Source: Anaerolineales bacterium (GTDB lineage: Bacteria; Chloroflexota; Anaerolineae; Anaerolineales; UBA6663). From it: a stretch of DNA of 29,518 nt. Both the position numbers and the translations under genes were made by a program. The stretch covers positions 1 to 29,518 of the forward strand of contig JAYUUW010000081.1 in assembly GCA_043754665.1 (NCBI GenBank), in the 5' to 3' direction. Below are positions 4,070-10,921 of this stretch, in pieces (the stretch's first letter is position 1; each line of letters starts with the position of its first letter). The notes beneath the pieces are model-generated. The model did no database searches and was not told the DNA's origin. It saw nothing but the letters and a program-made list of their open reading frames with translations.

Positions 4070-7000
4070 CTACAGCCCGGCGGCCGGCGGCGTGCTGCCC
4101 GGTGCCGGCCCGCCGAGTGACTTGCCGCCGCCCGGCGTATCCGGCTTCTTCTCGTCGTCCTGCTTTTCTTCCTGCGACTGCCCGCCGTCCGCGTCCAGCG
4201 CTCGGATGGCGCCCGAAATCAGGTGCGAGCTGGCGTCTTGGATGACCAGCAGCTTGCCTTGGATAAGCAGGTACGACTGCGTGGCGGCGTAGTTGGCCGG
4301 CAGCTTGGCCAGCCCGGTCTCCTTGGTCAGCGCGCCGTGCGCCTCGTACAGCACCTGCCGGAAGTCGCCGATGGCCGCTTGCATTTCAGTCTGGATCGCC
4401 TCGCCCTCGCCTTGCAGCGCCAGCCGTTCTTGCAACGTCATGACCTTCACGGCCGGGTCGCCGGCGGCCTTTTGCCCGAGCTTGGCCAGCGAGTCGGCGT
4501 CGCCCTTGGCTTGCAGCAGCCAGGTATCAAACTTATCGGCCAGCGCCTCAAACCGCGCCTGGCTCGGGATCTTGAGGCTCACCGCCAGGCCGTCTTTGCC
4601 GAACTCAGCCGAGAAGCGCCCACCGTACTTGCCCACCGACTTGATCGCCCCGGCTACCTCGGCCACTTGCCCGGCCGGGTTCATGCCTTGAGCGGCGTGG
4701 AACAGTTTGAGCGCGTTGTCGAGCATGGCCGATAGGCGCTGCGGCACGTCCATGGCCGGGGCCGTACCGCCGGGGCCAAAGTCGCCCACCTTCTCGCGCT
4801 CGGTCACCTCGCGCCGCACGCCGCCGCCGGTGAAGTAGCCGCCGCCCTCGCTCTGGTTGATCTTCGCGCCCCGGTCGGAGATTTGCTCGATCAGGCTGGC
4901 TTGCTGCCCCGCGTCGGTGGTCTTCAGCAGTTCCTGCTGGAGTTTGTCGATGTCGGCTTGGAACGCGGCCACCTCCGCCTTGCTGATGGTCTTGACCTCC
5001 ACGATGCCGACGTTGGCCGACTTCATCATGTCCTTGACCACCTGCTGGGTGGCCTCGTCGCCGCTCGCCACCGCGTCCTGGAACATCAGGTTGAGCATCA
5101 TTTCCTGCTCTTTGCGCGCCTGCGAGGCCGACAGCTTGGCGCGCAGTTCGGGCGCCAGTTGGTCGAGCAGGTGCATCCGGCGCGGGTCGGTGAAGAAGTC
5201 GGCATACAGCAGCATTTGCAGCCGGCCAGGGTCCACGCCGGCGCGGCCCGCCATGAACGACCGCGCCTGGTCGCGGTGCTCCGACGACAGGCTGCCCAGC
5301 GACGACATATCGAGGTCGCTGCCGAAGCTGCCCTGCGAGCCGGTGCGCCTGAAGTTCTCCAGTTCGCCGGGGTCGAGGTCCAGGCCGTTGATGTAGGCTT
5401 GCAGGTCCTGCCACAAGCTATTGCGCCAGGCGTTCAGCCGCTGCCCCGCCGCCGACTGGTTGCCCAGCGTCAGCGAGAGCTTCTGCCAGCCGCCGCACTG
5501 CGTCAGCACGTCTTTCGGCCCCAGCAGGTCAATCGCCTGGCTGACGATCTGATCCGCTTCTTCGCGCGTGATCTTCTGTTCGGCCAGGTCAACCGCCATG
5601 GTCGCCAGCTTGCCGCTCACCGACTTGGAGCCGCCGGCCTTCATCGCTTCCAGGTAGGCCTTCAGGCGGGCGTAGGCCGGCGAGTCGGCCGGGATGGTGT
5701 ACAGCAGGTCCTCGGCCGAACGCCCGCTCTTGGAGACCGCCTCGGCCACGCCCAGTTCGTTGATGGCCCGCTCGGCGATCTGGGCCTGCTCGGCTTTGGG
5801 CAGCCGGTCGAGCTCCTTGATGCCGGGGTACGCCCGCCCAGCCGCGCCCATGCCTTCCAGCAGGTCTTTGGGCCGAATGATCTTGCTGCGGAAGGTCTTG
5901 CCCGCGCCGTACAGGTCGATCAGCGCGGCGGCGGTGTTGATGATGGCCTCGACCAAGACCGCCGAAATTTGTTCCTTGGTAACCAGTTCGGTGCCGGTCT
6001 TCACGGCGGTTTGGGCCGCCGTGGTCATGTCGTCGTACTTCTCCCAACTCATGGCCGCTGGTGCGGCGCTGGCCCCCACGCCGATCATAAGTGGGATCAG
6101 CGTCGCCAACCCGCCCGAGGCGAACTCGGCCACCAGGAAGGCGATCATCGCCGCACCGCCCAGCAGGTTGCTAATTAGTTCCTCATTGGCCTGGTAATCG
6201 GCCATGATGAACTTGCGCTGGGCCATCTTGGTGAACGGCTTGTCCCACGGCACGCCCGACGCGCCCGGCCCGCCCATGATCTGGTGGTGGATGGGCAGCA
6301 GGTCACGGTGGTCGAGGTCGTCTTCTGAGATGGCCTTGATCGTCTGGAGGATGTGCTCGTCCACTTGCGTGAACGACTCCATGATCTGGTTGCGGCCCTC
6401 TTCCGGCGTGGCCGTGGGGAAGTCCTTGATCTTGCCGCTGACCATCAGCGCGTACAGCGCCGGGTTCTCGTCGGTGATCTTGCCCATCACGATGCCCAGC
6501 TCGTCGTACTGCTTCTTCACCACGGCCCAGTGCGCCATCTTGACGCCCGGCTCGTTGTCAAACGGTTGGAAGGGCGGGGCGCTCGGGTCAAAGTGGGCGA
6601 TCTCGCGGTCCTCGTCGCCTTCCTCGCCCTGGCCGTACATGGCCGGCTTCATGCCCGACCAGCCTACGGCAATTGTCGACAACTTGGCCTGTTGGTCTTG
6701 GGCTTGCAGCAGCAATTCAGCGATCTTCTGCTGCTCCTCGATCTTGGCTTGGGCCGCGGCGGCCTGCGTCGGACCCGGCGCGGTGGGGTCGTTCTGCTCC
6801 GGCGCGGCCAGGCGCTGCGCCTCCTGCGCCACGAAGTCGTGGTTGCTGTTGAGGTGGCCGAGGGCCACGCCCTTCACATCGCTCTTGAACTTGGCCTCCA
6901 GCGCCGCCACCTCGGGGATGGCCTTGGGGTTCGCGCCGTTCTCAATCGCCTGCTCGAACAGCGCCGCCCAGTTGGCGTCCAGGTTCCAAATGCCCGCGCC

Positions 7001-10921: not shown

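Follow-up and report, generated by a model that had tools for sequence, protein, structure and literature searches.

Two diverged copies of a hydrophobic-hairpin scaffold domain in a cargo protein encoded at a contractile injection system locus of an Anaerolineales bacterium

The P0001 locus and its two scaffold copies

The window analysed here is a whole contig of 29.5 kb from an Anaerolineales bacterium, belonging to a fragmented metagenome-assembled genome (MAG) of 993 contigs that is 79% complete. Its minus strand carries the head of a contractile injection system (CIS) operon, in which genes for an ATPase, P0002, P0001, a Pvc16_N protein and the sheath follow one another in that order. 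P0001, the large protein studied here, has its nearest relatives in MAGs of Anaerolineales and Promineifilaceae, and it belongs to the eCIS_core cargo class both by domain and by locus. Its match to the eCIS_core model PF13699 scores 93.7 bits over residues 863–940, with the HEVAH motif at 929–933, and the domain is internal, not N-terminal. On either side of it lie two regions, each with a hydrophobic helical hairpin, which we refer to as scaffold copies 1 and 2 (Table 1).

Table 1 Features of the CIS locus and of P0001, by position in the window (aa, residues of P0001; HMM, hidden Markov model; ORF, open reading frame).
Feature	Position (nt)	Strand	Basis
Contractile sheath gene	1426..2985	-	Minus-strand run with the other operon genes
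Pvc16_N (DUF4255) tail-terminator-like gene, directly downstream of P0001	3154..3972	-	Domain search
P0001, 2283-aa cargo gene with both scaffold copies	4070..10921	-	Single ORF
Second variable end, aa 1720-2283, mostly helical, small sheet, TGSxGxFxSDLDxS motif	4073..5764	-	Alignment of 19 sequences
Scaffold copy 2, aa 1336-1679 (HMM envelope aa 1297-1716, 5774-7033)	5885..6916	-	hhalign; 24 relatives
Third helix of copy 2, aa 1650-1676, ...LIDLYGAGKTF	5894..5974	-	Hydropathy and hhalign
Hydrophobic helical hairpin 2, aa 1580-1626	6044..6184	-	Kyte-Doolittle peak 1.86; aligns with hairpin 1
DUF922-like region, aa 1067-1156	7454..7723	-	PF06037, E 0.0058, below cut-off; kept in P0155
Internal eCIS_core (DUF4157) HExxH domain, junction of two cargo units	8102..8335	-	PF13699
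First variable end, kinase-like region, aa 560-830	8432..9244	-	Motifs KGxGFGV, VVIKVY, AFAMEKV, HGDLQG, PIDFQ
Third hydrophobic/amphipathic helix of copy 1, aa 478-506, DPSLFWLA...AAGKAF	9404..9490	-	Best-conserved family motif
Scaffold copy 1, aa 178-504 (HMM envelope aa 151-556, 9254-10471)	9410..10390	-	hhalign; family HMM 506.7 bits
Hydrophobic helical hairpin 1, aa 406-451, Gly-rich turn	9569..9706	-	Kyte-Doolittle peak 2.14
N-terminal low-complexity leader, aa 1-150; LQQQRGNRHVQRLM motif at aa 76-89	10472..10921	-	Translation
P0002, 1048-aa eCIS_core cargo with three internal hairpin repeats	10940..14086	-	Domain search and translation
AAA+ ATPase with winged-helix domain (Pvc15-like)	14102..16246	-	Pfam-type domain search

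A preliminary description of the window had proposed that P0001 carries two diverged copies of one scaffold. The strings that it quoted all lie in the minus-strand ORF at 4070–10921, placed correctly to within about 15 nt, and its two hairpins were located at residues 411–445 (9587–9691) and 1586–1620 (6062–6166). Compared directly, the two copies share about 13% identity; BLASTP gave a marginal match (E = 0.032) over 91 residues around the hairpin, and single-sequence HMMER found no link between them. Because this direct comparison was weak, we gathered relatives of each copy for profile–profile comparison. Copy 1 (query residues 150–560) was searched against a collection of 1.84 billion proteins at E = 0.001 or better, and 24 relatives of copy 2 were obtained, two among 60 related genomes, four more from a phylum sample of 400 genomes and 18 from the large protein collection. 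Word-indexed searches returned four long relatives for copy 1 and just the query for copy 2 within the long protein.

Aligned with hhalign, 90 copy-1 relatives matched three copy-2 sequences (97.3%, E = 1.8e-11) over 310 collinear columns, pairing residues 178–504 with 1336–1679. These limits are almost identical to the ranges of ~185–505 and ~1345–1678 that had been read by eye, and the motif pairs seen by eye were reproduced as well. When copy 2 was represented by 24 sequences, the match rose to 99.1% (E = 1.5e-18, 315 columns). Against the real score of 89.8, the reversed alignment scored 24.9, 20 column shuffles all scored 19 or less and 20 shuffles of 25-column blocks all scored 32.3 or less. 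In the block shuffles several separate blocks each matched their own partner, so the homology signal does not stem from the hairpin alone. The copy-1 HMM also matches copy-2-type domains of other genomes along nearly its full length (E = 1e-9 to 1e-22), which provides a transitive link between the copies. Specificity was controlled with the hairpin repeats of P0002, which reach a probability of 1% or less in hhalign against either scaffold profile; a hydrophobic hairpin by itself thus does not yield the signal. The same comparison rules out the three P0002 repeats as third, fourth and fifth scaffold copies. Residues ~178–504 and ~1336–1679 of P0001 are therefore diverged copies of one domain and, taken alone with the architecture and apart from any membrane step, we regard this as nearly certain.

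No Pfam or NCBIfam model covers the scaffold domain, as the preliminary description had suspected, and its profile matched no PDB sequence, leaving it with no solved structure by sequence. The domain spans about 330–400 residues, made up of an N-terminal helical region of ~250 residues, the hairpin and a conserved amphipathic helix. A 19-residue hydropathy scan of all 2283 residues of P0001 picked out two places only as strongly hydrophobic, the spacing being the same at each: residues 406–451 with 478–506, and residues 1580–1626 with 1650–1674. The third hydrophobic helix starts ~25 residues after each hairpin and ends in AAGKxF or GAGKTF. Each hairpin consists of two helices of ~19 residues (24% Ala, 15% Gly, 15% Leu), and the hydrophobic character of its columns is kept in all 90 copy-1 relatives and in 23 of the 24 copy-2 relatives. 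Within the PTGGxS turn, the number of the 90 copy-1 sequences retaining each residue is 59 for P, 79 for T, 73 and 89 for the two G and 79 for S; in the third-helix motif, W334 (numbering of the module) never varies, and S326, P330, L335, A336 and D345 are nearly invariant.

An AlphaFold (AF2) model of copy 1, predicted from the 90-sequence alignment, is mostly helical with two short strands and has a mean predicted local distance difference test (pLDDT) score of 79.4. It has helices of 30–54 residues, and pLDDT is mostly above 90 in the first ~250 residues and 30–45 in the hairpin region. The copy-2 model has a helix order like that of copy 1, again with a dip in confidence at the hairpin.

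Family, variable ends and origin of the two-copy protein

The copy-1 family comprises 992 representative clusters (50% identity) at E = 0.001 or better, of which 580 reach 1e-10 or better. Different and often recognisable toxin domains follow the scaffold from one protein to another, bearing out the earlier suggestion of a reusable domain with interchangeable ends. Among 112 matches covering most of the domain, its distance from the N-terminus is very variable and usually 200–500 residues come after it; six members have fewer than 70 residues there. A Pfam scan of 48 full-length members found eCIS_core in 32, and the full-length consensus places it ahead of the scaffold, so that the typical order of the copy-1 family is eCIS_core (DUF4157), scaffold, variable end. 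The same 48 proteins carry colicin/pyocin DNase domains (three), DUF6782 peptidase domains (four), DUF922 (two), Ntox4, a Pput2613-type deaminase, an AHH nuclease and HopA1, and Het-C is present in one long relative, P0175. Most copy-2 relatives share the C-terminal domain of P0001; four members have other ends.

Scanning species-representative genomes with a degenerate pattern for the third-helix motif recovered 54 loci, distributed over Chloroflexota, Actinomycetota, Acidobacteriota, Myxococcota, Pseudomonadota, Cyanobacteriota, Armatimonadota, Gemmatimonadota and Bacteroidota. The scaffold ORF includes eCIS_core in 32 of 53 genome loci, and of the 25 loci whose 10-kb flanks are complete, 16 have a sheath, Pvc16 or ATPase gene related to that of the window near the scaffold. 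At one further site (G323:C2:186712-187895), scaffold-like pieces are spread over short frames with an internal TGA, and this may be a decayed copy.

The two variable ends of P0001 differ from each other, as had been claimed; the accompanying claim that both are enzyme-like is reduced to a plausible one, read from motifs. In the first end, the kinase-like motifs occur in the right order; five of seven homologues conserve them, and several relatives have this region as their terminal piece. Its ESM features reach 0.91–0.93 to clusters of the small kinases APH, RIO and OspG. The profile of this region matched no kinase in Pfam or PDB, which weakens the kinase reading. Unlike in the other five homologues, the putative catalytic Lys and both Asp are replaced in P0177 (2165 aa) and P0178 (2152 aa); the kinase-like ends of these two proteins may be inactive, or the kinase reading may be wrong.

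In the second end, T561, G562, D570, D572, S574 and D613 (numbering of the first row of the alignment) are invariant in 19 sequences. The invariant TGS...DLD and later Asp follow a pattern of the Pol-beta nucleotidyltransferase type, and the model has a small sheet at this place. Searches with this end gave no match in Pfam, NCBIfam, PDB sequences or the folds of PDB and Swiss-Prot models, and the ESM Atlas gave nothing for this C-terminal domain. A 984-residue model of copy 2 with the C-terminal domain likewise led to no usable match among known folds; its length, helical character and middling confidence are the probable reason. The Pvc16_N gene begins just 97 nt (3973–4069) beyond the end of P0001. 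No ORF of at least 100 residues, the only size looked at, lies wholly inside this gap, and hence there is no obvious immunity gene after either variable end.

Among 232 scaffold-bearing proteins and ORFs collected, a biased sample, P0001 is the only one with two scaffold copies. Its halves have separate counterparts. P0005 (1009 aa), encoded at the syntenic locus of a relative, corresponds to residues 68–1016 of P0001 at 51% identity and ends shortly after eCIS_core. P0155, the orthologue from genome G003, which belongs to the same family, corresponds to the second half, with leader, eCIS_core, DUF922-like region, copy 2 and C-terminal domain, and has only a leader ahead of eCIS_core. P0175 combines a P0001-like first half with a second eCIS_core. 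Together, these three architectures let P0001 be read as two units joined at eCIS_core, and it most likely arose when a protein of the order leader, scaffold, kinase-like region, eCIS_core was joined with one of the order leader, eCIS_core, DUF922-like region, scaffold, C-terminal domain through the eCIS_core that they have in common.

Multi-unit cargo proteins recur across several phyla: giant ORFs of 2100–2700 aa with two eCIS_core domains and one scaffold were seen at L017:7304-15391, L022:2-6355 and L050:4031-11923. In Mycolicibacterium sp. CR10 (L018:9419-14973), two adjoining genes, each with a full scaffold, lie beside an ATPase gene, a tandem arrangement as opposed to the fused one of the window.

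Proposed role of the scaffold and its alternatives

We propose that P0001 would be a cargo toxin of an extracellular or Streptomyces-type CIS, with the scaffold as a constant middle piece between the eCIS_core marker and an exchangeable toxin at the C-terminus. Once the particle has fired, the hairpin and the helix behind it would insert into a lipid membrane, either that of the target or, in cytoplasmic systems, that of the producer, and the inserted scaffold would hold or pass the attached toxin domain at this membrane. Many of the family ends, among them the DNases, the deaminase and a tRNA nuclease name found in AlphaFold DB, would need the cytoplasm to act. The term AB-type toxin unit, used in the preliminary description, holds as a loose analogy, since delivery would be by a contractile particle and not by receptor binding. 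Taken whole, a two-copy, conserved-domain CIS cargo whose hairpin and next helix would enter the membrane has, in our judgement, about an even chance of being correct.

Injected hydrophobic helices are thought to enter the recipient cytoplasmic membrane and to aid the passage of toxin or DNA in two other settings, the N-terminal transmembrane domains of the prePAAR effectors of type VI secretion systems (T6SS) and phage tape measure proteins. No relationship to either group in sequence or fold was found. P0001 would be delivered by a different machine, its hydrophobic helices are placed elsewhere in the protein, and its locus shows no recognisable chaperone gene.

Several observations weigh against the membrane-insertion proposal. 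Structure searches with the copy-1 model did not bear out the earlier idea of a membrane-insertion or translocation fold: in Foldseek against the PDB the best E value was 0.37, in VIA-align over 48,161 chains Z was 5.7 or less (IpaB fragments, Z 5.0 at a root-mean-square deviation of 17.7 Å), and neither method gave a fold match to colicin, ApoL, ClyA-type toxins or translocators of type III secretion systems (T3SS). Across the PDB, the VIA-align chains, AFDB clusters, BFVD and the ESM Atlas, the copy-1 model retrieved family members or noise alone, the sole significant fold matches being uncharacterised family members in AlphaFold DB. Only two of 90 members match any tape-measure PHROG, marginally at E of about 1e-3, tblastn against 50,697 phage records gave no match, and neither did a BFVD fold search (best E = 0.18). 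The hairpin is the low-confidence part of both copy models, and the helical part of ~250 residues has no role in the proposal. In the 401-genome phylum sample, only eight of the 75 genomes with eCIS_core have either scaffold type; the scaffold is thus one of several middle pieces in eCIS_core cargo. Furthermore, the disordered N-terminus alone suffices for loading of AlgoCIS cargo, which lies in the tube lumen (bioRxiv 10.64898/2026.05.27.728243), so that a dedicated membrane module is not obviously required. Lastly, independent contigs, likely from the source sample, cover 4000–8293 and 8273–10706 and break inside the eCIS_core coding region.

This last point bears on whether P0001 is a continuous protein or an artefact of repeat collapse. 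The contig at 8273–10706 differs from the window at eight positions within 8294–8357, and a 151-nt contig from an unrelated study spans the break in eCIS_core. The best other eCIS_core copy in the MAG has 69% DNA identity, so there is no near-identical second copy to explain a collapse. The same set of single-nucleotide differences at 8294–8345 was seen in three runs from three different studies, and the letters of the window there look like a minority strain variant. We consider it likely that P0001 continues as a single ORF across eCIS_core; the homology of its two copies is independent of this continuity.

Rather than entering a membrane, the scaffold could serve in packing or loading, as a long helical piece that guides the cargo into the tube lumen or attaches it to the spike, the tube initiator or an eCIS_core partner in the manner of a tape measure, its hydrophobic helices making protein–protein contacts. 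The mostly helical model with helices of 30–54 residues would suit such a role, as would the position of the cargo genes next to the ATPase and the Pvc16 and sheath genes. Among CIS cargo from Streptomyces, Sle1 binds the DUF4157 protein Sle2 through its helical N-terminal part (PMC13277306), and Tme binds spike and tube-initiator proteins (PMC11126660). In addition, one marginal tape-measure match, phrog_33360 (E = 5.4e-4), falls on residues 269–361 of the module, exactly the hairpin region. The tape-measure link could not, however, be reproduced across the family and neither tblastn nor fold search shows it; apart from one or two marginal PHROG matches, a tape-measure origin is unsupported (PHROGs searched with one protein and 90 members, tblastn, BFVD). 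Loading in AlgoCIS needs just the N-terminal disordered region, and two Ala/Gly/Leu-rich helices of ~19 residues with a tight turn are typical of lipid-embedded hairpins. We therefore view a packing role as possible but rather unlikely.

A more ambitious form of the membrane-insertion proposal would make the scaffold a self-contained translocation device, in which the hairpins and invariant-Trp helices of several copies form a conduit through the recipient cytoplasmic membrane for unfolded toxin. P0001 would then be a two-stage payload, cut by its internal eCIS_core peptidase, and its two translocators would deliver different enzymes. We think this improbable.

It is also conceivable that the toxic activity resides in the scaffold, which would form alpha-helical pores much as colicin pore domains, ApoL or T3SS translocators do, the C-terminal domains being extras. 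ApoL Pfam matches in nine of 90 members (best E = 3.9e-6) and SseC matches in three of 90 point in this direction, but they are at sub-family level and neither P0001 copy matches either. AhlB, SmhB and ClyA do appear among the Foldseek rows, although these pore-former rows are non-significant and no better than noise (E = 1.4 or worse, probability at most 0.05). The six members with fewer than 70 residues after the scaffold could be pore formers without a further domain, but proteins ending just after the scaffold may have been cut by contig ends, and most members continue for 200–500 residues, many with recognisable enzymatic toxins. A pore-forming toxin is thus quite improbable. Finally, a merely compositional resemblance between two unrelated helical regions, each with a Gly/Ala-rich hydrophobic pair, would fit the low identity and the hairpin-confined BLASTP match, but it is rejected as barely conceivable by the collinear profile alignment, the far lower scores of all reversed and shuffled controls, the separate pairing of several blocks, the transitive HMM matches and the failure of the P0002 repeats to match either profile.

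Relation to published cargo proteins and neighbouring features

For Streptomyces, the concept of a cargo with a membrane hairpin and exchangeable ends has already been published, in the form of Tme and of Sle1/Sle2. What is added here is the definition of the domain, the size and spread of its family and the two-copy fusion; we found no paper defining the scaffold domain in the searchable literature. P0001 resembles the Tme and Sle1 types in architecture, a likeness by published description and not by sequence.

Sle1 and Sle2 have been described as 'reconfigurable' effectors of actinobacterial contractile nanomachines, and in S. lividans, Sle1, for which a transmembrane hairpin is predicted, is packaged into the particle, arrives at lipid membranes and tolerates a foreign module at its C-terminus (Nagakubo et al. 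2026, J Bacteriol, PMC13277306). Compared by description, both Sle1 and the scaffold proteins are helix-rich cargo with a predicted transmembrane helical hairpin, differing or exchangeable C-terminal regions and a link to DUF4157, which for Sle1 lies in the neighbouring gene; like the Sle1 gene, the P0001 gene is encoded just upstream of the sheath gene. Whereas the hairpin of Sle1 is in the C-terminal globular part, that of the scaffold is in a defined domain ahead of the variable end, and most scaffold members hold eCIS_core in the same polypeptide. The scaffold family also spans many phyla, unlike the actinobacterial Sle1 type, with no Streptomyces record among the 54 loci. One genome (G329, L012:8756-11635) encodes a stand-alone eCIS_core protein of 199 aa directly upstream of a copy-2-type scaffold protein of 760 aa with a different C-terminus, a layout that resembles the Sle2-before-Sle1 pair.

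Tme (BN159_7576) is a tape-measure-related effector of about 2250 aa from the CIS of Streptomyces davawensis. It carries DUF4157 and a nuclease end together with predicted transmembrane helices, and its authors, who note that the C-terminus could be exchanged, speculate that it inserts into the membrane (Nagakubo et al. 2024, Nat Commun, PMC11126660). P0001 is like Tme a giant protein with DUF4157 and predicted transmembrane helices, which in Tme are joined by a C-terminal enzymatic toxin. The two differ in that a link to phage tape measures was not reproduced for the scaffold family, and in gene order, tme lying upstream of baseplate genes and the scaffold genes between the ATPase and the Pvc16 and sheath genes. 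Moreover, ~70% of Tme is reported to be predicted disordered, whereas the first ~250 residues of copy 1 are confidently modelled.

DUF4157 or PVC-metallopeptidase toxins, both polymorphic and associated with extracellular CIS, have been catalogued before (Zhang et al. 2012, PMC3482391; Geller et al. 2021, PMC8213781; Danov et al. 2024, PMC11297309), and they have in common with scaffold cargo the eCIS_core marker, the operon context and variable C-terminal toxins, often without an adjoining immunity gene. Only the peptidase and variable ends were described by Zhang et al. (PMC3482391), 'very long linkers' between DUF4157 and the toxin domains were noted by Geller et al. (PMC8213781), and most of the DUF4157 cargo predicted by Danov et al. 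has no other annotated domain (PMC11297309); other literature lumps the stretch from DUF4157 to the toxin into a 'CTD' (C-terminal domain). In scaffold cargo, unlike these published proteins, part of the 'linker' is a conserved domain with a family of its own, and in P0001 the marker lies between two units instead of at its usual N-terminal place.

The finding refines a known picture and opens no new one. In about a thousand clusters, part of the 'linker' is a defined domain with clear boundaries, recognisable by its invariant Trp, its PTGGxS turn and its DPSLFWLALD-type motif. Its profile is useful for annotating cargo and for locating the start of the variable toxin end, and the domain itself is a concrete piece to delete or swap in tests of how cargo reaches or crosses membranes, and, in engineered particles, a candidate carrier module. 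The two-copy protein provides a natural pair of very diverged versions, in which the shared positions mark what the domain needs.

Further features of the locus concern the other parts of P0001 and its neighbours. Motifs akin to the LQQQRGNRHVQRLM motif of the leader also occur in P0002, P0155 and P0156. The DUF922-like region sits between eCIS_core and scaffold copy 2 and has a HEDAH string at residues ~1106–1110. In P0002, the three repeats at 11099–13414 (minus strand) measure ~200–260 aa, each with its own hydrophobic segment, and match one another in BLASTP at 1e-17 to 2e-31; the G003 genome carries two P0002-type genes in tandem. Upstream of the operon, at 16709–29516, are genes of housekeeping type, encoding a histone-deacetylase-family protein, a TrmI-like methyltransferase, an M23/LysM peptidase and several LysM proteins. 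In the syntenic locus of P0005, which goes on with two gp19-like tube genes, the TrmI and M23/LysM neighbours are retained.

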